From Alphaproteobacteria bacterium (GTDB lineage Bacteria; Pseudomonadota; Alphaproteobacteria; CALMVH01), in contig CBDAQZ010000001.1 in NCBI GenBank assembly GCA_965199335.1, positions 71,102 through 135,101 on the forward strand: DNA of 64,000 nucleotides, in the 5' to 3' direction. Under the pieces are notes generated by a model, which was given only the letters and a program-made list of their open reading frames with translations, ran no database searches and had not been told where the DNA came from. Positions 1-56,350 of this stretch are shown in pieces; the stretch's first letter is position 1, and each line of letters opens with the position of its first letter. The translations under genes and the position numbers were made by a program.

Positions 1-2965
1 CGCCATAGGAGTTGATTTCCACCGGCGCACTGTTCCCGATCGATACCGGGATTTCCGTCGGCGCGTTGACGTTGCGCGTCTGCCCGGCCATCAACTGTTC
101 GGTCACGACTTTCAGCGTGTAGTCGACGCGATTGTTCGGCGACACGCTGGTAACCGCGATCTGATATTTGCCAGCGCCCAGACGACCCTTCCAGGGCTTG
201 GCCGATAACGCAGTATCTTCTTCGATCCGCACCGGACCGGTCAGCTTTGCCTGCATGCCGCTATCGATGGCGATCGTCACGTCGGCGGCGGCAGGCAGCG
301 TGAACTGCCAGACATCCGGCGTGCGCTCCTGATCCTTCTCCGGCTCCTGCCAGCGGTTCGTCATGTCTTCGCCGAAAGCGACCGGGAAGGGGCCATGGCC
401 CGAGCGTTCCACCGGCAGCTCGATCCGGTGGAGCAGGGTCACGGCACGGTTCTCCACGGCGCCTGGCAGCAGGATCATGCGATAGTCGCCGGGTTCGAAA
501 TCCTGCGCGATGTTGGCGGGACCGCCGGGGACCAGCAGCGGCCAGCCGTCGCTATCCTCAAGCCGCATGGTGAAGTCGCGGCCGAGCCCCATCGTGTGCA
601 GCGAATATTTGCCTGCCTTGTCGATATGGAACGTATAGGTCCCGGCCTCTCCGGGGGCGAGGGTGGTGCGCGCCCAGAGCTCGGGCTGCAGCACGCCTTC
701 GGTCTTCAGTGGCGTGTCGTCCAGCATCAGCCCGATCGGGCCGAAGCTCTGCGCGGGCGTGCCGACCGTCAGCTGGTAATCGCCCTCGCCCAGGTAACGT
801 TGAATCAGGAAATTGCGGCCGGTGCCGTTGGCCGTCTCGGCGGCGATCTCCGGAATGACGCGTGTCCGCAGCGTGCCCTTGGTTTCGATGATCCCGGTCG
901 ATTCAAGCCGGTAGAGCGCGGGCTTGGTGACGGGTACCGCAAAGGTCGCATGTTCGCCCTGGGCCAATGTCTGGAACACAGGCTTGTCCGGTGCCAGCGT
1001 AGCGAATTGCGGCAGTCCGGCCAGCAGCTTCGCGTCGATTGCAGGCAGCGGCGTATCCGCCTGCAGGTTTTTTGGCGCGAAGGCGATGCTGACGTAACGC
1101 GGATTGCCGGCAGGTAACGTCAGGCCTAGCCGGTGTTTGCCCGCACCGACTGCGACCGACAGAGCGCTTGCGGCCTGGTCCAGAACGAGCGGCAAGGCCG
1201 TGCCGTCTTCGGCGGTTGCGGTGATCCGGCCCTCCTCGGTCGCGACCACCGGCAGGGCGATCGTCTGGCCGCCGACCATCTCGAACGTGATGCCGGGGCC
1301 AAGCGCGATCGGCGAATTGTAGAGCCGTACCCCGGCATGACCGCCGGCCAGAGTGTTCAGATGGATCGTGTAATCGCCGCGCCGGGTGAACGGAACCTCG
1401 ATCATCGCTGCCGCCTGGCGCGGGGATTCGACGCTCGGCGCCGGGGTGCCCTGCGCGTGCAGCCGCAGCGTCAGGATACCCTTGCCGTTTTCCTTCGGCA
1501 CGATGTCGAGTGCATAGAAGCCCGGATCGAGCTGCCAGCCATAGCCGGACGGCTGGTAGCTGCGCCGGTAGCGCGGGTCGACGTAGAAAGACTCGATACG
1601 GTACTGGGCATCGACGCCTTCGCCATCGACGCTCAGATCGACCGGTTCGGTGACCTCGAGAAACAGCTCCGTCTGGTCAAGCAGGTTGAAGCGCCTTTGC
1701 CAGCTGATCGATTTTCCGACCTTGATCGCGGTCGAGGCGATGGCCGGCTCGCTGATGGATTTCTTGCCGGTCTCGTCCGCGATCACGATGGTCGGATCGA
1801 TCTCGTCCTGGTCATTGCCGCTCTGGTACATGGCAGCCCAGCCGGTGCTTTCGCTGCCGATGGCGATCACGGGCTTAGGATTACGGTTGTCGAACCAGGT
1901 CAGCCTATATCCCTGGCCCGGCTGCCGCTCGACCGTCACCAGCGAGAACTTGCCGGCATTGTCGTCGCCGGCGGTCGTCGTCTCGGCAAACGGATCGCGG
2001 CTGGTCTTGTCGATCGTGACGCGGTTCATGCCGCCTATGAACGGATTGCCGGACTCATAGGGCTGCACGCCGAGCGCCGCGTGTTCCGATTTGGCGATGT
2101 CCAGCCGGAAGTAAGTCGCGGTGGCCGGCACCAGGAAGCGGTCGAAGCCGGTGGACGATGCCACCTGCCACAAACGCCCGGCCTCGGCCAGTTTGGGGAT
2201 GCCGAAGCGGATGTGCAGAGGGTGGGCTTTCGACTCGCTGGACCATTTCTGACCGTCGCCGCCATAGGCGGTGACGCGGTACAGGCCCGGCTCGAGCGAA
2301 AGTGCCAGTTGCTTGACCGTCAAGGGCTGGCCGGCGGACGGATCGGCGGTCGCGGTTCCCGGTTTCGCGTCTACCAGCCACTTGCCGTCGCGCCACAGCC
2401 GCAGATCGTCCAGATTGCGTCCCGACGCCTCGATGGCGACATCGCGCCGCGCCGGGATGTTCAGCCAGTATGAACGCTGCTGGTGGTCGCCCAGATCGCT
2501 GTCGATCGGCTTCAGCTCGACCAGCTGCTGCTGGTCGGTGTTCAGCTCCACCGAGGGTAGGACCGCAACCGTAGCGTTGCCGGAGCCGTGCGGGTCGGAA
2601 ATCAGCTTTATCTTGTACTGGCCATGATCCAGGAAGGCGTCGATGCGGCCGTCGGCATGCCCTGCCGATCCTTGCGCCAGACCCGGGCCCGCCATGCGGT
2701 CGACAAGCTGGATCGCCGTGCCCTGGTCGCTTTTGACCGCGATCGAATAGCGCCCGAAGGTGGCGGCCTTCAGCAGGGTTTCATTCCTGCCCGTGGCGGT
2801 GAAAACCGATTTGTCGAGAGTGGCGGAGGCATCGGGGACGATAGGCGAGGCCTGTGCCGGCGGCGAAGGGTCCTGAGGGGCGGCGAAGGAAGGAAAGACA
2901 CCTGCAAACGTACAGATCGCGGCGAGGCCAACGCACCCGAATACGGCAAAAGCGACCCGCTGCAA
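1..2965 (-). CDS. Large secreted protein with repeated PPC/beta-sandwich-like modules (GxYxLxV motifs); partial, continues past the window start
   Basis: Manual reverse-strand translation from TTG at 2965 gives an open frame of more than 980 codons with no stop. An AAGGAA ribosome-binding site sits 7 nt upstream. The N-terminus is a Sec signal peptide (MQRVAFAVFGCVGLAAICTFAGVFPSFA-AP). Plus-strand ORFs 395-1117 and 1133-2473 have R/G/A-rich antisense-type composition. The gene is absent from the ORF track only because it is truncated by the window edge. Confidence 0.55.
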   Translation of the reverse strand, partial: MQRVAFAVFGCVGLAAICTFAGVFPSFAAPQDPSPPAQASPIVPDASATLDKSVFTATGRNETLLKAATFGRYSIAVKSDQGTAIQLVDRMAGPGLAQGSAGHADGRIDAFLDHGQYKIKLISDPHGSGNATVAVLPSVELNTDQQQLVELKPIDSDLGDHQQRSYWLNIPARRDVAIEASGRNLDDLRLWRDGKWLVDAKPGTATADPSAGQPLTVKQLALSLEPGLYRVTAYGGDGQKWSSESKAHPLHIRFGIPKLAEAGRLWQVASSTGFDRFLVPATATYFRLDIAKSEHAALGVQPYESGNPFIGGMNRVTIDKTSRDPFAETTTAGDDNAGKFSLVTVERQPGQGYRLTWFDNRNPKPVIAIGSESTGWAAMYQSGNDQDEIDPTIVIADETGKKSISEPAIASTAIKVGKSISWQRRFNLLDQTELFLEVTEPVDLSVDGEGVDAQYRIESFYVDPRYRRSYQPSGYGWQLDPGFYALDIVPKENGKGILTLRLHAQGTPAPSVESPRQAAAMIEVPFTRRGDYTIHLNTLAGGHAGVRLYNSPIALGPGITFEMVGGQTIALPVVATEEGRITATAEDGTALPLVLDQAASALSVAVGAGKHRLGLTLPAGNPRYVSIAFAPKNLQADTPLPAIDAKLLAGLPQFATLAPDKPVFQTLAQGEHATFAVPVTKPALYRLESTGIIETKGTLRTRVIPEIAAETANGTGRNFLIQRYLGEGDYQLTVGTPAQSFGPIGLMLDDTPLKTEGVLQPELWARTTLAPGEAGTYTFHIDKAGKYSLHTMGLGRDFTMRLEDSDGWPLLVPGGPANIAQDFEPGDYRMILLPGAVENRAVTLLHRIELPVERSGHGPFPVAFGEDMTNRWQEPEKDQERTPDVWQFTLPAAADVTIAIDSGMQAKLTGPVRIEEDTALSAKPWKGRLGAGKYQIAVTSVSPNNRVDYTLKVVTEQLMAGQTRNVNAPTEIPVSIGNSAPVEINSYG

Positions 2966-3098
2966 GGCAGTGTTCCTTAAAGGAGTTATTTTCACCTTTA
3001 TAGGAGGGTACCTACCTCTCGGCAATATACAATCATGCGAATTCTACGAAAGAGCGCACTTTTATTTCAGACACAAGTATTAAGGGACGTCCTCTAGA

Positions 3099-6000
3099 TT
3101 ACCAGTTGTACTTCACGCCCGCCTGGACCGTGTGATCCAGCTCGTGCTCGCGAATATCGGCATCGTATGACAGCGTCGCGCTCAGATTGGGGTTGAAGGC
3201 GGCGGTCATGCCGGCGCCAAGCAACGCGGCGTCCCGGCCCGGATGCACGCCCGAGATGCGGAAGCCCGCGGCGGGGGCGCCGGTGAAGCTTTCGCTCAAC
3301 GCCACATTGGTCGCCATGAAATCGTGCAGGTAGGCGGCTCTGATTTCGGGCGTCAGGGCGGTACCGTTCTTCGTCATCAGCGTCAGGTCTGCCCGTATCC
3401 CCGCCAGCGAACGCAGGGCGTTCAGGTTCGTGCCGTTGGTGTCGAAGTCCAGCCCGGCGACCGGCGAGCCGCTGGTGGCGTACCGGTTCTGGTGGATGTT
3501 GTCGTATTCGACGCCGATACGCGGCACCAGCGTCAGCTTGCCGCTGGTCAGTCCCTGCGGAACCGAGAAAGCATGGCTCAGTCCTGCCTCGGCGCTTAGC
3601 TCGTCGCCGTCATGGCGGGATGTCTGCTGGTAGCCCGTACCCGATGCCAGCGGCAGGTAGTCGCTGTCGTGATAATCGTTGAAGGCGTAGCCGACCGCGG
3701 CATCGAACACCATCGGGATGGGGTTCAGCTTGGCGCTGCCGTAAAGAGTGGCGCGGTAGGTATCGATATTGTTCTCGCCATTATCGCCGCTCAGGTTGAA
3801 GTCGGTATGCTCGTAGGCGACCGCGGCACCGATCAGCACGCCGGGTGCGACTTTCGTGTCGATGCCGCCGACGATGCCACCGGTGCGGTACTGGAATTCG
3901 GAGAAGCCGCTTTCGCCGCCGGTCTCGCCCAACACGCCGTAGCCGTGGACCCACAGGCTGGCCTGGTCTGCGCGCGTAGGGTTGCTGCCGCTGCAAGGGC
4001 CGAACATGGATTCGTCGGTCCTGCCCACAGGAACGTCGAACGTGCCGGGCAGGCCGGTCATCGCCATGCGCGTGGTGGTCAGGCCCTGGCATTCGTTCAT
4101 GCGCTCGACGATGAAATTCTGGAAGCTGGTCAGATTGGCAAGGTCGATGGTGCCGATATCGGCACGCAGCTCACCCAGCGCGCCTGCGACCAGCGCGCGC
4201 GGCGCATCGGCAAGCGAAGGACCGAAGATGTTGACCAGACCCTCGGCGAAGGCGCTGCTCGGCGCTACGCCCGGCAGGATCGACTTGATCGCGCCATCGA
4301 CGTTGCTGGTGTTCGGTGTCGAAGTCGCGCCCGGCGGCGGGGCCGCAAATATGGCTTCCGGACTGGTCACCGTCAGCTCTACCGCGTTCGGCAGATACGT
4401 CTCGGTGAAGAACGTCCCGGTGGAGGTCGCCGTGGCAGTGGCGAACTGGCCAGTGATGCCGTTGTTCGCGGTCAGGACGGTATATTGCTTGCCCAAGGCA
4501 TAGCTGCCTGGATCGTTGACGATCGAAAGCGTGCCGTTCAGCGCGGCGGTGCCGTTCACGGCCAGGACGCTGTTGCTGGTCGGGGTGACCCTGATCGTCA
4601 GGACGCTGTTCTGCGCCTGCGTGTAGTTGCCGTTGACGGTCAGCGCACCGATCGCCGTGCCGGGATTGACAGTGCCGTTATTGGTCAGCGCGCCGACGAT
4701 CGTGCCGTAGCCCATCAGCGTGCCGCCGCTGGCCACGGTCACCGGGCTGGTCAGCATCGCGGCCGAACCGGGCGTATCGCCTACCTGAAGAGTGCCTGCC
4801 GAGACGGTCGTACTGGCGAAGCTGCTGGCATTGTTCAGGGTCAGCGATCCGGCCGTGGACTTGATGAGCGCGCCGGTGCTCGAGACGGTTCCGGTAAAGG
4901 TGCCGGCATCGGCCGTCAGCGTACCGCCTGTCGAGGTGATCGCACCGCTGCCGGAAAGGGCGGACGCCTCTTGGTCGAAGCCGTTCATGGCAAAGGTCGC
5001 GCCGCTGGCGATGGCGAGGCCGGCGGGCCCGGCGGCATTGCTTGCGCCGAGCGCCAGCGTGCCGGCGTTGACGTTGGTCACGCCGCTATAGGTGTTCGCG
5101 CCGGACAGCGTCAGCGTACCCGCCGTGTTCTTGATCAGGTTGCCCGCGCCGCTGTAGACGCCCGAGAACGTACCGGATGCGACGGTCAGCGCGCCGCCGG
5201 TGGTTGTGACCGCACCCGACCCGGTCAAGGCGGTGACAGTCTGGTTGAAAGTGCCTAATGCCACCGTGCCCGCATTGCCGACCGCCAGCGTACCCGCGGC
5301 GATCGCATTGTCGACGCCGAGCGCCAGCGTGCCACCGTTCGCGTTGGTGCCGCCGCTATAGGCGTTGCCGGCGTTGGTCAGGGTAACGGTGTGCGTGCCT
5401 GCTGTGTTCAATGCACCGGTACCCGTCAACGCGCCGCTATAAGTATAGGAATTGCCGAGGCTGGTCAGCGTGCCGCCGCCGGCCGCAAGCGTCGCCGCAT
5501 TTCCGATCGTGATGCCGGCAGCCGATGCCCCCAGTGCGCCGCCGTTGAACGTCACGATGCCGCTACCCAGCGAGGCATTGTTGCCGGCGTTGATCGTGCC
5601 GGCGTTGATCGTGACCGCGCCGGTATAACCGGTTGCGCCGCTAAGGGCCTGCGTGCCGGTGCCGTTCTTGATCAGCGCACCGGTTCCCGTGATCGTACCT
5701 GCGTAGGTGTAGGCGCCACTGCCTGCCAGTGTAAGTGTGCTGGCGCCCGCCAGAACGGAACCGGCGTTGTTGCCGTTCAAACCGTTGATGGTCGGACTGA
5801 AGCCGTTTAGGTTCACCACGGCCGCCGGACCGTTCACGTTCACCGTTCCGGTGCCGAGCGCGGCGACGTTGGCGTAGGTCGCCGTCGTATTGCTGTTGAT
5901 GAAGGCACCGCCGGTAAAGGTGTTCGCGCCCGAGACGGATACGCTGCCGGTACCGGTCGAGGAGGACAGGATCAGCCGTCCTGCACCGCTTACGACGCCC

Positions 6001-7454
6001 GATAGCGTATCCGCGTTGCCGTTGGTATCGACGGTGCCGTTGCCGGTCAGCGTTATATTGTTGCTGATCGTGGTTCCGGCGCTCGTCTGGATCGTGCCGC
6101 CCGCGCCGCCGAAGGTGATGGCGCTGCCAAGGTCGCTGGCGTTGGTGACTCCGGCCAGCGTTGCCGCGTTGTTGATCGTCAGGGCGCCGGTATAGTTGTT
6201 CGCGCCCGAAAGCGTAACCGTGCCGCCCAGCACCTGCACCGCGCCGGCGCCGCTGATAGCGCCCGAGTACGTGCCCGTACCGGTGTTCGTGAACTGAAGC
6301 GTTCCTGCATCCGCTACGCCGTTGTTGATCGGCAGGCTGGCAGTGGTGACGTTCAACGTACCGCCCGAATTGATGACCGAGCCGCCGGTATAGGTGTTCG
6401 TCCCTGTCAGGGACAATGTACCGGTGCCGCCATAAGTCACGCTGCCGGATCCCGAGATGACGCCGGCAAAGGTGCTGCTGCCCGAACCGTCCACCGTCAG
6501 GGAATTCGCGCCCAGCGCCAGCGTGCTGGTCGAATCGCCGCTCAGATTGTTCAGCGTCTGGCTGAAGCCGTTGAAGTTGAACGAGCCGTTGTTGGTGAAG
6601 CTGACACCGCTGGATTGCGCCAGCGTGTTGGCGCTCCCCGCGACCAGGGTGCCACCTGTTATGGTGGTCGAACCCGTATAGGTGACCGCCTGCGTCAGGG
6701 TCAGCGTGCCACCTGTCAGGGCGAAGTTGCTGCCCGCGCCCGAGATGACGCCGTCATAGGTCGTGGTCGACCCCGCGCCGCCGACCGACAGGTTGGAGCC
6801 GGTGCCGCCCAGCATGATCTTTTCCGAGCCGCCGCTGGTATCCGAGATCGAGCCGATGATGTTCGTACCGGTCGTCTGGCTTAAATCCAGCGTGCCGCCG
6901 GCGCTGCTGTAGGCGCCCATGATCGTGGCTGCATTGCCGTTGACGATCAGCGAGCTGTTGCCGATCGAAACGCTGCCGCTGAAAGTCAGGTTGCCGTTCG
7001 TGGTATTGAAGCTTTCACCACCGGTCGAGGTGTTGGTCAGCGTTCCGATGGTCAGCGTCGACCCCGTGCCGGTCAGATCGAACGTCTGGTTGGCCGTGGA
7101 CGAATTCGTCAGCGTACCGATATTGAACGAAACCGCGTTGCCTTCGAGGAAGGTGTATGAGACGCCGCCGTTGAACAGCAGGGTGTTGAGCGGATTGCTG
7201 GTATTGGCAAAGGTGATCGCCGACGTCTTGGTGACCGCCGCGGAGTTTCCGAACACCGCAGTATCCGCCGCGCCCGGGGCGTTGCCGGTATCGTAGTTGC
7301 TGCCGAGGTTGAAATTGCCGTTGCTGGTAGTCGAACCCGCCCCATCATACGTATCTGTCGCCGCCATGGCTTCCATGGGTGATCCAACGGCGACAAGCGT
7401 TAATGCAGTGCCCGCGAGAAGGATGGTCTGGAGGCGGCGGCTGAAACGGGGCAT
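3099..7454 (-). CDS. Type Va autotransporter (passenger with PATR-type G/T/S-rich beta-helix repeats plus C-terminal beta-barrel translocator)
   Basis: 1451 aa. Signal peptide, then dozens of GTGTLTLSGANTYTGGT-like repeats. The C-terminal roughly 280 aa is a beta-domain ending ...VKYNW; a terminal aromatic is typical of autotransporter barrels. Confidence 0.9.
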   Translation of the reverse strand: MPRFSRRLQTILLAGTALTLVAVGSPMEAMAATDTYDGAGSTTSNGNFNLGSNYDTGNAPGAADTAVFGNSAAVTKTSAITFANTSNPLNTLLFNGGVSYTFLEGNAVSFNIGTLTNSSTANQTFDLTGTGSTLTIGTLTNTSTGGESFNTTNGNLTFSGSVSIGNSSLIVNGNAATIMGAYSSAGGTLDLSQTTGTNIIGSISDTSGGSEKIMLGGTGSNLSVGGAGSTTTYDGVISGAGSNFALTGGTLTLTQAVTYTGSTTITGGTLVAGSANTLAQSSGVSFTNNGSFNFNGFSQTLNNLSGDSTSTLALGANSLTVDGSGSSTFAGVISGSGSVTYGGTGTLSLTGTNTYTGGSVINSGGTLNVTTASLPINNGVADAGTLQFTNTGTGTYSGAISGAGAVQVLGGTVTLSGANNYTGALTINNAATLAGVTNASDLGSAITFGGAGGTIQTSAGTTISNNITLTGNGTVDTNGNADTLSGVVSGAGRLILSSSTGTGSVSVSGANTFTGGAFINSNTTATYANVAALGTGTVNVNGPAAVVNLNGFSPTINGLNGNNAGSVLAGASTLTLAGSGAYTYAGTITGTGALIKNGTGTQALSGATGYTGAVTINAGTINAGNNASLGSGIVTFNGGALGASAAGITIGNAATLAAGGGTLTSLGNSYTYSGALTGTGALNTAGTHTVTLTNAGNAYSGGTNANGGTLALGVDNAIAAGTLAVGNAGTVALGTFNQTVTALTGSGAVTTTGGALTVASGTFSGVYSGAGNLIKNTAGTLTLSGANTYSGVTNVNAGTLALGASNAAGPAGLAIASGATFAMNGFDQEASALSGSGAITSTGGTLTADAGTFTGTVSSTGALIKSTAGSLTLNNASSFASTTVSAGTLQVGDTPGSAAMLTSPVTVASGGTLMGYGTIVGALTNNGTVNPGTAIGALTVNGNYTQAQNSVLTIRVTPTSNSVLAVNGTAALNGTLSIVNDPGSYALGKQYTVLTANNGITGQFATATATSTGTFFTETYLPNAVELTVTSPEAIFAAPPPGATSTPNTSNVDGAIKSILPGVAPSSAFAEGLVNIFGPSLADAPRALVAGALGELRADIGTIDLANLTSFQNFIVERMNECQGLTTTRMAMTGLPGTFDVPVGRTDESMFGPCSGSNPTRADQASLWVHGYGVLGETGGESGFSEFQYRTGGIVGGIDTKVAPGVLIGAAVAYEHTDFNLSGDNGENNIDTYRATLYGSAKLNPIPMVFDAAVGYAFNDYHDSDYLPLASGTGYQQTSRHDGDELSAEAGLSHAFSVPQGLTSGKLTLVPRIGVEYDNIHQNRYATSGSPVAGLDFDTNGTNLNALRSLAGIRADLTLMTKNGTALTPEIRAAYLHDFMATNVALSESFTGAPAAGFRISGVHPGRDAALLGAGMTAAFNPNLSATLSYDADIREHELDHTVQAGVKYNW

Positions 7455-45687: not shown

Positions 45688-46179
45688 TCAGTGCGACATA
45701 TCCATGCCGTCCATCTTCATGCCCTGCATGCCGCCCAGCGGCTTGAAAGTCGCAGGGCCCCTGACCGTTACCGTGACCGGCAGCGGACCGGCATGCTCGA
45801 ACGTCAGCAGCAATGGAAAGGTATCGCCTGCCTTGAGGGGGTTTTTCAGGCCGGTCAGCATCAGGTGATAGCCGTTCGGTCCCGCCTTGAACGGGTGCTG
45901 CGGGTCGATCGCGATCGGTTCGGTCACGGGCCGCATCCGCATGATGCCGTTATCCATCGTGCTGTCGTGCATTTCCGACTTGTCGGCGATCGGCGTGCTC
46001 TCGGCGGTCAGCCGGTCGGGCGTGCCCGAGTTCTCGACCGTGAAATAGACCGCGGCGCTGGATTGAGCCGTTGGCGTTGCCCGCGACCAGGCGTCAGATA
46101 CCTTGATCCGGTCGGTGGTCTGGGCCATGGCCGCCGTCGAAATACAGGTTGCGAATAAAGCCGTGGTCAATCTGTGCAT
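45688..46179 (-). CDS. Periplasmic copper chaperone PCu(A)C (DUF461)
   Basis: YHLMLTGLKNPLKAGDTFPLLLTFEHAG is the PCuAC signature. Met/His-rich C-terminus. A GGGAGA ribosome-binding site lies 6 nt upstream. Confidence 0.9.
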   Translation of the reverse strand: MHRLTTALFATCISTAAMAQTTDRIKVSDAWSRATPTAQSSAAVYFTVENSGTPDRLTAESTPIADKSEMHDSTMDNGIMRMRPVTEPIAIDPQHPFKAGPNGYHLMLTGLKNPLKAGDTFPLLLTFEHAGPLPVTVTVRGPATFKPLGGMQGMKMDGMDMSH

Positions 46180-46198
46180 GTTGTGTCTCCCTGTGATG

Positions 46199-46792
46199 TT
46201 ACGGCAGATGCCGGCCGATATCGGCGGCGATGGCGTCGCCCTGTTGCTCGGCGGCGATGACGGTGACGAATTTGCCATCCCGGTCCATGAGATAGAACAC
46301 CGAACTGTGGTCTACCTCGTAATCGTTAGACCCCGTGCCGGTACGATGGACTTCGCTGTATACCTTATAGTCCTTCTCGACCGACGCAATCTGCTCGCTT
46401 GTGCCGGTCAGGCCCAGCAGGGTCGGCCAGAACTGGGCGACGTAGGATTTCAGCACGGCGGGCGTGTCGCGCGCCGGGTCGACGGTTATGAACAGCGGTT
46501 GTATCCCGTCGGCCTTCGTGCCCAGGGCTTTCAAAGCGATCGCCAGGTCGGCCATCGTCGTCGGGCAGACATCTGGGCAGAACGTGTAGCCGAAATAGAC
46601 CAGCATGTATTTGCCGCGAAAGCTGCGGTCGGTCACAATCCTGCCGTCGCTGGCGACAAGGCTGAAGGGGCCGCCGACGCTGCCGCTGGAATCGCCATGA
46701 TACAGCATCACGCCGGCGATCAGGCCGACGCACAGCAGCGCCATGGCCAGCGCCGGAAACAATATGCGTCGATCAGTGGTGATGGTGGGCAT
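46199..46792 (-). CDS. SCO1/SenC-family copper chaperone (thioredoxin fold, CPDVCP)
   Basis: YFGYTFCPDVCPTTM ... H; TM anchor. Confidence 0.9.
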   Translation of the reverse strand: MPTITTDRRILFPALAMALLCVGLIAGVMLYHGDSSGSVGGPFSLVASDGRIVTDRSFRGKYMLVYFGYTFCPDVCPTTMADLAIALKALGTKADGIQPLFITVDPARDTPAVLKSYVAQFWPTLLGLTGTSEQIASVEKDYKVYSEVHRTGTGSNDYEVDHSSVFYLMDRDGKFVTVIAAEQQGDAIAADIGRHLP

Positions 46793-48665
46793 GACTCATA
46801 TCCATGGCTGCCAGCGGATGATCCACGATTTCATGCACGCTGACCAGCAGCTTGTCGGGATCGTTCCAGTCCCTGTTCTCTTCCGGGCGCTGCCAGCTGC
46901 GCAGCCAGCCATTGGGATCGATCAGGAACTGCCGGCCGTCCATGTCCCCTGCATCTACGCCCGACACATTGGCATAGGCCGCTGCCAGCGAGATATCGCG
47001 CGCGGCGCAATGGGCGCTGTCCGGCACGGCATGCGGATCGGCCAGCACGGTGACCAGCTGCCCGTCCAGCTTTTCGGGTGGCGTATGATCCGCGCCGAAC
47101 ACCAGCCTGACGGCCTGGCCATGCAATCCCTGCAGGTTGGTCGCGCCGCCGATGCAATCGATATCGAAGCCGGGAGCCTGCACCTGCATGTGATTGTCAC
47201 CGGCATTGCGGGCCCGGATGAAGTCGATCAGCTGCCAGCGTTCCTCCTCGCTCAGCATGGCGGCGAAAGGCGGCATCGCCTTGCCGCCATCGGGCGCATC
47301 GATACCGTTGGTCAGCCACCAGAACAATTCGCCGTCGCTGTGCCCCCAGAGATGGCCGGCGGTCAAGTCGGCGGGTGGTATGGGCAGATCTGTCGCATCC
47401 GGCCCATCGCCCATGCCGGTGGGCCCGTGGCAACGTGCGCAGTTGGCTGGATACAATGCCGCGCCTGCCGCGATCGAGCGGGTGCTGAAGCCTGTGGTCG
47501 AATGATAGAAGCTGGTCGGATAGGCCTCGACCAGCAGCAGGTCCAGATGCGGGACGGCGAACCAGACGATCACGGCCGCCAGCAGCAGGCCCGGGTAGCG
47601 CAACCGGCGCATGAAGATGGCGGCGACAATCAGCCCCGTGGCGGCGAGCAGCGCCAATGCCGCATATTCGACTTCGGCCCGCAACTCGGGTGCCTCGTTC
47701 AGGGTGAGCAGGCTGAATTGAAGGCCGAAAGGCCAGACGGACTGGATGTGCATGCCTGGCGGCAGCATGACCAGGGTGCTGGCGACCAGAAGGATCGCAA
47801 GGCCGAAGCCGGTTTCCAGGGTGATGCTGCGGACTAGCTTCCTGGCATCCCGCTCGGGCGTCAGGCGAAAGCGATTGAGCGCGGCAAATCCCAGCAGGAT
47901 GCCGAACAGCGCCAGCTTGACGAGTGCCAGCCAGCCATAGGCTGTCCCGACCAGAGCGGGAATGCTGCCGACCAGCACCGATCCCTGCCACAGGGCGGTT
48001 ACCAGCAGAGTCACGACACAGGCGGTACCGAAGCTGCCGAAACGGTGCGCGGCCAGGAAAGCGGGTTTGGCATCGGCGGCGCGTACAAGCATCAGCAACG
48101 GGACGAGCGATCCCAGCCAGGCGGTCGCGGCAAGCAGATGCGCGATCTCCGACAACAGCAAGGGACTGAACCCGTCATACATCGCAGCGGCGTGACCATG
48201 CCAGGCTTGCGCGACCACGGCGCATCCGGCCATGAAGGCGACAAAAGCGAATGTCTCGGAAGTTGTTTTCCTGAACAGCAGCAACGCCAGAGCGGCAAGC
48301 AAAGCCGTCGCCTGCAGGATCACGATATGGCCGAACTCGGTCGAGCCAAGCACGGCCGGTACCTGCGCCAGTGTCGGCATCAACCCGTGCGTGCCGGCTA
48401 ACGCGCCGCTTTGCACAACCAGCCACAGGCACAGAAAGAAAAGCGCGGCGCCGATGCTGGCGATGCCGGTTTTGCGGTATTTCGCATCGAGCCGGGAAGC
48501 CGCGGCCGGCGACATCAGTTTCAGCGACGGTCCCGCCAGTCGGCTGCGGAACAACGGCGTGCCGTAGGCGGAGGCCAGCGACGCGACGGACAACCCGCGC
48601 GAGAGGGCGAGCCAGAGCCCGCCCTCCGCTAGATCGAACGGTGGCAATGCCCCATTCAGTATCAT
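46773..48665 (-). CDS. copD: CopD-family copper-resistance membrane protein fused to a c-type cytochrome domain (CARCH) and a further C-terminal domain with an HAHHHH tail
   Basis: The N-terminal roughly 300 aa has about 8 TM helices (CopD). A CxxCH heme motif follows at CARCHGP. The start makes an ATGA overlap with the copC stop. Confidence 0.8.
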   Translation of the reverse strand: MILNGALPPFDLAEGGLWLALSRGLSVASLASAYGTPLFRSRLAGPSLKLMSPAAASRLDAKYRKTGIASIGAALFFLCLWLVVQSGALAGTHGLMPTLAQVPAVLGSTEFGHIVILQATALLAALALLLFRKTTSETFAFVAFMAGCAVVAQAWHGHAAAMYDGFSPLLLSEIAHLLAATAWLGSLVPLLMLVRAADAKPAFLAAHRFGSFGTACVVTLLVTALWQGSVLVGSIPALVGTAYGWLALVKLALFGILLGFAALNRFRLTPERDARKLVRSITLETGFGLAILLVASTLVMLPPGMHIQSVWPFGLQFSLLTLNEAPELRAEVEYAALALLAATGLIVAAIFMRRLRYPGLLLAAVIVWFAVPHLDLLLVEAYPTSFYHSTTGFSTRSIAAGAALYPANCARCHGPTGMGDGPDATDLPIPPADLTAGHLWGHSDGELFWWLTNGIDAPDGGKAMPPFAAMLSEEERWQLIDFIRARNAGDNHMQVQAPGFDIDCIGGATNLQGLHGQAVRLVFGADHTPPEKLDGQLVTVLADPHAVPDSAHCAARDISLAAAYANVSGVDAGDMDGRQFLIDPNGWLRSWQRPEENRDWNDPDKLLVSVHEIVDHPLAAMDMSHAHHHH

Positions 48666-49018
48666 GGTTGGTAATCGAAGCTGTAATGGCCGTTGGTGTG
48701 ATGGGTATCCACCGATACCACGTTCCATCTCACCTCGTAATGCCCGGGTTTGAGCGTCGTGCCAATCGGTGCGATCAGCTGCTTGGCATTACCGGCATCC
48801 ACAGTGACCGTACCCAGCTGAACGGCCTGACCATCGGCGGCGAACAACGCGATGTGCGAAAAGGTAGGTTCGATCGCTTCGGTATAGACGATGCGGATTT
48901 CCGTTGGCGCTGCCGCCACCGTCGATCCGACACGCGGCGTTGCCTCGTCCAGGAAGGCGTGGGCATCGGCAGCCCCCGCGGAAAGGCATGCCGCCGCTAT
49001 CAGGATGATATGTTTCAC
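48662..49018 (-). CDS. copC: Copper-resistance protein CopC (periplasmic copper-binding)
   Basis: The mature N-terminus is HAFLDEATP... (His1 ligand). The CopC fold is 118 aa. The GTG start overlaps the upstream stop (GTGA). Confidence 0.9.
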   Translation of the reverse strand: MKHIILIAAACLSAGAADAHAFLDEATPRVGSTVAAAPTEIRIVYTEAIEPTFSHIALFAADGQAVQLGTVTVDAGNAKQLIAPIGTTLKPGHYEVRWNVVSVDTHHTNGHYSFDYQP

Positions 49019-49949
49019 AGGCTGTCTCCTCCGAAAATGGGTTGGCCGAAAACGGCCGGCAGAAGATCGTCGAGGAAGACATGGAACTGGCCGATGACGC
49101 CTGTGCCATGCTGACTATTGGCGTTGATCGGAACGATCGCCTCCAGTCCGAACTGCCAGGTATCTGCCAGGTAGATGACGCCCGGATTGACCGTACCGCC
49201 GAAATCGTGATCGCCGTGGTCCAGCCCGACCGATAGCGGGAATTCCACTGTCGGGACCAAGTGATTTACGAAGCTAGGCAAACCGTAATCTTTCACCGTG
49301 GATTTGAGATAGGGCATGCTGTATTCCAGCGCGATTCCAGGCTGGAATTCGTCACCTTCTGTCCGGTCCTGCGGAATGGCGAGACCCAGCGTGCCGGTGA
49401 CCGCAAATGGCCTCAATAACGCTACGCTGTCTGGTAGATCGCCCATGCCCTTGCCGAAATAGAAAGTCGGCGTGTAGGTGCTGTTGCGATCGACACCGAT
49501 GCGGGACGAGCCGCTGCTGCCGACATCGACCACAAGGCCGGCCGACATCAGGATCTCGTGTTCGTCGTTTTCATAGAACTGGTATTTTCCCGGACACTTC
49601 GAGGTTCTGGAATCCGTAGCTTCCCGGTTCGCCCTTCGCGGTCTGCGAAGTCCCACCCCGGCGCGATGCCGACGGCGAAATTGGGCGCCACCAGAACGTC
49701 CAGTTCGGCGCCGACATCGGTTTCGCTTGGGATGTTGCCGCTGTCGTCTCGCGAATTGCGCTGCCAGCCCACAGTCGGCAGCGAGATCTCGCTGGCGGCT
49801 GCAGGATCGTCGGTGGCAAGAGTTGCAGGGAACACGCGGTCGCCGGCAATGCCGTGCGCGTGGGATGATGCGGGCAGCAACAGCGCCGCCGTAGCCAATA
49901 GCAGGGCAGGCGACGCAAGGCGCGCCTTCCCGTGATTTAGGAAAGTCAT
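49015..49949 (-). pseudogene. Outer-membrane beta-barrel-like protein gene disrupted by two +1 frameshifts in about 50 bp (49560-49620)
   Basis: Frame A is signal peptide MTFLNHGKARLASPALLLATAALLLPASSHA ... GWDFADREG. Frame B is EPGSYGFQNLEVSG. Frame C is KYQFYENDEHEILMSAGL ... to the TGA at 49015, which is coupled to copC. Each frame is protein-like only on its own side of the junctions. Confidence 0.5.
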
Positions 49950-50012
49950 GACGTCTCCGGAAGTTCGTTTTCAAGTAAGTGCGAGCGCGCCGGCCGAGTA
50001 CCGGCGGAAATA

Positions 50013-53105: not shown

Positions 53106-53717
53106 CTACTTGACCGCCGTCGTCATCGCCTTGGCCAGGTCGTCGGCGCTGATGTCGCTTGAGAATATGCCGATCGTCTTGCCGTCCGGGTTGACCAGGT
53201 AGACGTAGGACGAATGGTCCATGACATAATCGGTCGCGTTCTGCGAGGCTTCGGACTTGGCGTAGTAGACCTTGTATTCCTTGGCGACTTCGGCGATGTC
53301 GGCGTCGCTGCCGGTCAGGCCGACAAGGCGCGGATGGAAGGACGGCACGTAATCGGCCAGCTTCTGCGCCGTATCGCGAGCGGGATCGATGGTGATGAAG
53401 ATCGGCTGCACCTTGTCGGCCTGGGCCTTGTCCATCTGGTCCAGCGCCTGGCCGACGACCAACAGTTCCGTTGGGCAGGCATCGGGACAGAACGTATAGC
53501 CGAAATAGATCAGCAGGTACTGGCCCGCGTAATCCTTCTGGCTGACCTGCTTGCCGGTCTGGTCGGTCAGATGGAAGTCGCCGCCGATGGATGTCGAAGG
53601 TGACGCAAGCAGACCTGTCTGCTGCGGCACCTCCGCCGGTGGACGATTCATGACAAACCAGACCGAGGCTGTCCCTGCAAGAGCGAGGGCCAGAATAATA
53701 AAGATCCACTGCTTCAT
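53106..53717 (-). CDS. SCO1/SenC-family copper chaperone (second paralog)
   Basis: YFGYTFCPDACPTEL. It is about 50% identical to the paralog at 46199-46792. Confidence 0.9.
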   Translation of the reverse strand: MKQWIFIILALALAGTASVWFVMNRPPAEVPQQTGLLASPSTSIGGDFHLTDQTGKQVSQKDYAGQYLLIYFGYTFCPDACPTELLVVGQALDQMDKAQADKVQPIFITIDPARDTAQKLADYVPSFHPRLVGLTGSDADIAEVAKEYKVYYAKSEASQNATDYVMDHSSYVYLVNPDGKTIGIFSSDISADDLAKAMTTAVK

Positions 53718-55396: not shown

Positions 55397-55417
55397 GGTA
55401 GCGCGGGAGTACGGGCC

Positions 55418-56350
55418 ATCGGACACGATCATAGTCATCATCATCTGCCGGCCAATTCCCGTACGCTCTGGCTGGCGCTCGGCCTGACCCTGGCATTCTG
55501 CGCCGGGGAGGCCGTGGTCGGGCTGGTCACAAACTCGTTGGCCCTGATCTCCGATGCCGGTCACAATCTGGGCGATGCGCTGGCGCTGGGCTTGTCCGGC
55601 TATGCCGCCTGGGTAGGGGGCAAGCCCGCGACCTCAAAGCATACCTATGGCTACCACCGCGCCGCAATCCTGGCGCCCCTGTTCAACGCCGCGACGCTGG
55701 TCGTCACCGCGCTTGTGATCGGCGCGGCGGCGGTCGGGCGACTGTTCGCGCCACAGCCGGTCGAGGCCGGGCCCATGATCTGGGTCGCGGCGGCGGCGCT
55801 GGTTCTGAACACGGTCATCGCCCTGTTCCTGGCGGGCGGTGTCAAACACAGCCTGAACGACCGGTCGGTGTTCGTGCACATGGTCGGCGATGCGTTGTCC
55901 AGCCTTGTCGTGATCGGGGGCGGCATCGTGATCCGCTATACCGGCTGGCAGGCGGTCGACCCGCTGGTATCGCTGGCCATCGCCGCCTTCATCCTGGTCT
56001 CCGCCAGCGGCATTCTGCGCCAGACCATCGGCATCCTGATGGAGAACGCGCCGCCCGGCCTTGACGTGGCGGCGCTGGTCAGGACCATCCGCGCGGTAGA
56101 GCCGGTGCAGACGGTGCACCACCTGCATGTCTGGTCGATCCGCGACGGCATGACGGCTTTAAGCTGCCATGTGACGCTGCCCGAGGCCTGCACACTGCGC
56201 GACTGCTCGGCCACGATCGCGGCGATCAACGCCCGGCTGCACGACGAGTTCGGCATCCATCACGCCACGATCCAGGCCGAGCTGGAAGGCCAGTGCGAAC
56301 CGGCGCACGAGGACGATGTATTCTGCGTCATGGAGACGCATGCGCACTAG
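55418..56350 (+). CDS. Cation diffusion facilitator (CzcD/ZitB-type) transporter; start codon ambiguous (ATC at 55418 behind a Shine-Dalgarno, or GTG at 55514 which would truncate TM1)
   Basis: The in-frame upstream sequence encodes GHDHSHHH-LPANSRTLWLALGLTLAF (the classic CDF His-rich N-terminus plus TM1) but has no ATG/GTG/TTG. GGGAG lies 8 nt before the ATC at 55418-55420. Confidence 0.8.
   Translation: MGHDHSHHHLPANSRTLWLALGLTLAFCAGEAVVGLVTNSLALISDAGHNLGDALALGLSGYAAWVGGKPATSKHTYGYHRAAILAPLFNAATLVVTALVIGAAAVGRLFAPQPVEAGPMIWVAAAALVLNTVIALFLAGGVKHSLNDRSVFVHMVGDALSSLVVIGGGIVIRYTGWQAVDPLVSLAIAAFILVSASGILRQTIGILMENAPPGLDVAALVRTIRAVEPVQTVHHLHVWSIRDGMTALSCHVTLPEACTLRDCSATIAAINARLHDEFGIHHATIQAELEGQCEPAHEDDVFCVMETHAH

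Follow-up and report, generated by a model that had tools for sequence, protein, structure and literature searches.

The window, by which we mean the whole 64-kb stretch of DNA analysed here, carries on its minus strand (49949-49015) one 310-codon gene that is spread over three reading frames, with 99 + 22 + 189 codons recovered in a three-frame translation of 49015-49974 (Table 1). We give an even chance to the reading that the DNA holds a loss-of-function allele, very recent and non-programmed, of an outer-membrane barrel gene, the second gene in a predicted copper-acquisition operon. The same three segments (49647-49851, 49593-49646 and 49017-49592) were found blind by a codon-usage HMM, which was unsupervised, trained on the long ORFs of the window and run across all 64 kb, and the three-frame pattern is thus real and no reading artefact. 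At the first lesion the uninterrupted sequence TGGACT is TGGGACT in the window, and at the second GGGAAATAC is GGGAAAATAC; each lesion is a single-base insertion, and reading through it would therefore take a +1 shift. Codon comparison with four relatives and the HMM together bear out the proposal of an earlier note on this DNA that the gene is split by two +1-type frameshifts at short G/A runs, and they correct its coordinates: the two extra bases lie 67 nt apart rather than within ~50 bp, the middle piece has 22 codons (49651-49586) rather than 15 residues, and the first junction, at ~49652, falls 12 nt outside the proposed span of 49548-49640, whose lower end is the frame-A stop.

Table 1. 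Pieces and lesions of the split barrel gene, and its neighbours in the copper operon (window coordinates)
Feature	Coordinates	Strand	Basis
Piece A, 99 codons, ends ..GIAPGW; residues 1-99 of intact homologues	49949-49653	-	Translation, HMM
Lesion 1, GGG run with one extra G: TGG G ACT vs TGG ACN or TGG TCC in relatives	49654-49652	-	Codon comparison
Piece B, 22 codons, +1 frame: TSQTAKGEPGSYGFQNLEVSGK	49651-49586	-	21/22 identical to P0003
Lesion 2, AAAA run with one extra A: GGG AAA A TAC vs GGN AAR TAY in relatives	49588-49585	-	Codon comparison
Piece C, 189 codons + stop, YQFYENDEHEILMSAGL...IFGGDSL*	49584-49015	-	Translation
Frame-B stop after ..SGKIPVL*, reached when the second shift is not made	49573-49571	-	Translation
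TGATG: frame-A premature TGA (49550-49548) overlapping the conserved Met ATG (49548-49546) of piece C	49550-49546	-	Translation
DUF2946/CruR-like ORF, 149 aa	50013-50462	-	PF11162, 26.9 bits vs cut-off 23.7
copC (PF04234)	48662-49018	-	Pfam
copD fused to cytochrome c domain, 651 aa	46773-48728	-	Pfam
SCO1/SenC copper chaperone	46199-46792	-	Pfam
PCuAC copper chaperone	45688-46278	-	Pfam

Piece A opens with the ATG at 49949 and contains a signal-peptide-like N-terminus (..PASSHA, then HGIAGDRVFPAT..), as the earlier note had recognised, after which come the conserved segment of the N-terminus and the opening strands of the barrel. Translation from this ATG stops after 133 residues, 99 of them native and 34 out-of-frame. 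The source genome annotation holds two proteins, of 133 aa (P0121) and 177 aa (P0052), the second of which starts at the conserved Met and covers only the last 177 codons of piece C. The TGATG at this point makes the two fragments resemble a translationally coupled gene pair, and is a chance product of the Leu-Met codons CTG ATG. At the far end of piece C, its TGA (49017-49015) overlaps the GTG start of copC (49018-49016), giving the GTGA that had been described before.

Intact relatives set the true frame. The best match of the reconstructed 310-aa protein is P0001, also of 310 aa (81% identity, 100% coverage, E = 5e-167), and there are 2,663 matches at E <= 0.001, the intact proteins being ~300-317 aa long. 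The gene is a single ORF in all homologues listed, so that the shifts are private to this assembly, and no frame change interrupts it in the 80 best genomic loci. When four intact relatives (L001/L002, L085, L086 and L087) were aligned with the window at the DNA and codon level, exactly two length differences emerged, one G and one A, and the close relatives have no homopolymer run at either lesion site. Furthermore, the reconstructed protein retains 66/66 of the columns with a conservation of at least 90% across 64 intact homologues, where intact members differ at 1.75 such columns on average. Against L001, dN/dS is 0.14 overall (0.16, 0.04 and 0.10 for pieces A, B and C, respectively), which argues that the gene was under purifying selection until very recently. 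The two insertions aside, the gene shows no decay. The disabling lesions are absent from orthologues, as expected of a recent pseudogene. In its short-homopolymer, single-base indels and in fragments that are annotated separately, the gene is like ordinary "frameshifted" pseudogenes and indel artefacts, and its sole oddity by comparison is that two lesions stand so close together in a gene that is otherwise undecayed.

Of the explanations proposed earlier, a fresh pseudogene and a sequencing error are the two that remain live. A choice between real mutation and consensus error is close to even, and we lean slightly to the former. If the lesions are an artefact, to which we assign somewhat less than an even chance, the gene is intact in the organism and two false single-base insertions arose at short homopolymers in a locally poor consensus, through low coverage or strain mixture. 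The lesions do have the look of a local consensus error, being clustered, of the same type and both run-lengthening, and they sit in an otherwise perfect gene (on conserved residues and dN/dS alike) within an intact operon. The close relatives all come from metagenome assemblies, and the source is likely to be a MAG as well. P0121, P0052 and CopC are singleton clusters from one 529,973-nt contig; the species has been sampled once, and no independent sequence therefore backs the lesions. Indel artefacts do exist in this kind of data, as judged from the closest relative, L001 (ENA ERZ24894558 ctg14230l), a public long-read contig in which G-run insertions split its own TENA/haem-oxygenase-like and PIG-L genes. 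Each of these genes is in two parts (the sites are at ~1960-1970 and 3170-3185 of L001), with extra bases in G runs compared with the intact genes of the window, resembling long-read consensus indels. Independent neutral events, moreover, might be expected to bring substitutions at conserved residues, and none are seen, which we count against a real mutation.

Against an artefact stands the condition of the rest of the window. The codon-usage HMM, applied to ~55 genes in 64 kb, found no further mid-gene frame change, every other same-strand frame change falling on a stop codon, that is, on a normal gene junction; Pfam matches revealed no second split gene among the other ORFs tested in the window. 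The window holds 83 homopolymer runs of at least 5 nt (5-7 nt), none of which breaks a gene. Generic homopolymer miscalling is therefore rare in this contig, and longer runs are where it would be expected to strike first. At the implied error rate, two random errors within 67 nt would be unlikely unless errors cluster locally. A second frameshift in an already dead gene, by contrast, would be neutral, which counts for a real mutation. An error at a methylation motif was also considered, both sites following CCGGG, and was rejected, there being no signal with 220 such sites in the window.

If the allele is real, the two insertions would each have lengthened a short run (TGG to TGGG, AAA to AAAA) and moved the frame twice, and the barrel could not form, leaving a cell without this outer-membrane component. 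Ribosomes ending at the TGATG may restart at the conserved Met, in which case translation would run on as far as the GTGA shared with copC, and polarity would be limited. The remaining operon is intact, and copC-copD-sco1-pcuAC could still be expressed. No compensating paralogue of the barrel gene was found in the window.

Two further explanations would preserve a function for the split gene, and we regard both as very improbable. In the first, programmed +1 ribosomal frameshifting at both sites would yield a little full-length protein. Read in the current frame, site 2 is AAA AUA. The overlapping AAA offers Lys-tRNA a place to re-pair, and no Ile codon is rarer here than AUA (1.8 per 1000); the site resembles a +1 site made of a slippery codon and a hungry codon. 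This context is, however, the mere product of the extra A before TAC. Site 1 (UGG G AC) is a poor slip site: a shift there would require Trp-tRNA to pair anew with GGG, and GAC, the codon that follows, is a common one. Moreover, two inefficient frameshifts in series would give a negligible yield, and the shift lacks the conservation seen with prfB-type frameshifting, given that four close relatives and all homologues listed read in a single frame. In the second, which the earlier note had raised as a slippery phase-variable site, slipped-strand mispairing at the G/A runs would switch an outer-membrane copper channel on and off, as at contingency loci. Phase variation typically affects proteins of the outer membrane, and both lesions do lie in homopolymers. 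Slippage becomes frequent at runs of roughly 7 nt or more, however, and the lesion runs, GGG and AAAA, are only 3 and 4 nt long, fall short of the tract of ~7 nt expected of a contingency locus and are absent from relatives at both positions. The window has hundreds of runs as long or longer, and a switch would need reversion at two separate sites. Transcriptional slippage was rejected for the same shortness of the runs, since it requires much longer ones.

The operon in which the gene lies runs in the order CruR-like ORF, barrel, copC, copD-cytochrome c, sco1 and pcuAC. Pfam matches confirm the copC, copD, SCO and PCuAC genes that had been named downstream, with the addition that CopD is fused to cytochrome c. 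The barrel gene had been taken to head this operon; a DUF2946 ORF with the hallmarks of CruR lies 63 nt upstream of it on the same strand, and it is therefore this ORF that stands at the head. In Bordetella pertussis, CruR (Bp2923) is an upstream ORF that senses copper via a CXXC motif and shuts off downstream copper-import genes (PMC9426467). CruR proteins are defined by PF11162, a CXXC motif, RAPP ~3 residues from the C-terminus, ~45 residues (+/- one or two) between the two motifs and first position in the operon, and CopC, PCuAC and Sco are frequent operon partners (PMC9426467). The ORF in the window has CPLC at residues 92-95 and RAPP at 143-146 of 149, three residues from the end, with 47 residues between them, and by sequence it shares all of these features, including its first position. 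By analogy, it is probably a copper-sensing upstream ORF that would control the whole operon, and the operon would be a copper-repressed copper-acquisition operon. The arrangement recurs: of the 83 related loci for which 500 nt or more of upstream sequence was available, 59 have an ORF with CxxC and ending in R[AG][PG]P immediately 5' of the barrel gene, and among 82 related loci spanning Alpha- and Betaproteobacteria, Verrucomicrobia, Rokubacteria, Planctomycetes and Myxococcota, copC comes straight after the barrel gene in 78 and copD is present in 57. The closest described arrangement is the B. pertussis cruR-crtA/bfrG-bp2921 operon (PMC9426467, PMC12914433), where likewise a DUF2946 gene with CXXC and RAPP comes first, and genes for an outer-membrane protein and for copper handling come after it. 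The outer-membrane part is a small barrel here, whereas in B. pertussis it is a TonB-dependent transporter, and a spacer of 63 nt here, versus 162 bp there, follows the upstream ORF.

Several smaller features of this region were recorded. The CopD-cytochrome c protein carries a long extension at its C-terminus, with HHHH as the last residues, many relatives having a plain CopD of ~300 aa. At the SCO1/PCuAC junction (46058-46278, minus strand), the codon-usage HMM shows no clean frame switch; the PCuAC ORF, taken from its first possible start, shares 80 nt with the 3' end of SCO1, and its Pfam domain begins only at residue 60, leaving the true start uncertain. A second SCO1/SenC gene (53106-53717, minus strand) lies 3.2 kb upstream of the operon and adjoins a PhoH-like gene. 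Between this SCO1 gene and the operon are GNAT, haem-oxygenase-like/TENA, phosphoribosyltransferase and PIG-L genes, in an order that is kept in L001 and L085.

The protein that the gene would encode belongs to an unnamed family of small, plugged outer-membrane barrels, FapF/COG4313-like by fold. Searched with hmmscan, the two end pieces (N- and C-terminal) as well as the reconstructed 310-aa protein matched no Pfam family at E <= 1 and no NCBIfam family, and a profile search of PDB sequences returned chance matches only (E >= 0.5). The family has 562 confirmed matches in species-representative genomes, and in the two homologues whose RefSeq name was checked (Nitrobacter hamburgensis and Paraburkholderia atlantica) it is "hypothetical protein". 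The predicted signal-peptidase site lies between SHA and H, which makes an invariant His the predicted first mature residue, and the most conserved segment of the family, HGIAGDRxFPATxxTDDP, follows right after the cleavage site. This N-terminal segment may form a metal-binding plug.

In fold, the barrel resembles that of the COG4313 channel Pput2725 (PDB 4rl8; PF13557, "Phenol_MetA_deg"), and neither PF13557 nor CopB gives a sequence match. Identity to COG4313/PF13557 is 11%, and the protein is without a PF13557 match even at E <= 1. Its gene, moreover, lies in a copper context (copC/copD and CruR) whereas COG4313 belongs to aromatic catabolism, and the invariant mature N-terminal His and the motif that it opens set the family apart. 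FapF, the barrel that secretes functional amyloid in Pseudomonas (PDB 5o65), is 10% identical and differs in its inferred cargo, and the window gene has no fap operon context. The gene is like PcoB/CopB of copper resistance (PDB 7pge) in being an outer-membrane barrel in a copper cluster with copC and copD; unlike them, it has no CopB Pfam match and is not paired with a multicopper oxidase (CopA/PcoA).

The family lies nearly always between a CruR-type ORF and copC-copD, which makes it a concrete, testable candidate for the route by which copper crosses the outer membrane to CopCD, SCO1 and PCuAC. Judged only from fold and gene neighbourhood, the intact protein would be a passive, plugged channel, independent of TonB, through which, under copper scarcity, the metal reaches CopC in the periplasm and CopD in the inner membrane. 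In the literature searched, the copper-specific outer-membrane importers named are TonB-dependent transporters only (PMC12914433), and searches on COG4313 with copper and on copCD with the outer membrane found no description of the barrel family. We tentatively propose, as a possibility somewhat short of even, that the family is the missing outer-membrane entry gate of CopC/CopD uptake, a small TonB-independent channel with an invariant His at its mature N-terminus, lying under a CruR-type ORF in many soil bacteria, and that the copy in the window is a natural knock-out. The frameshift itself matters little. It falls in the ordinary class of frameshifted genes, and the gene is best flagged as "frameshifted, verify with reads" rather than as a case of recoding or phase variation. 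Of greater interest is a by-product, the unnamed barrel family, which makes a reasonable lead.

Elsewhere in the window, a CDF (CzcD-like) metal-efflux gene (55397-56350, plus strand) has no ATG, GTG or TTG before its first transmembrane helix, and its annotated start lies inside that helix, giving 278 aa where homologues have 315-319 aa. In its start region (55405-55420), GGGAG is followed after 8 nt by an ATC ahead of a His-rich N-terminus, and in the corresponding position of the nearest relative, L088, an ATC stands 7 nt after GGGAG, which suggests from sequence comparison a conserved non-canonical ATC start. The absent start codon was considered as a second lesion and ruled out, the same ATC following the same GGGAG in that relative. 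An ORF of more than 1,000 aa with almost no Pfam match (1-3025, minus strand) runs off the start of the window, and adjoins a gene (3099-7454, minus strand) for a 1,451-aa autotransporter with PATR repeats and a beta-domain.
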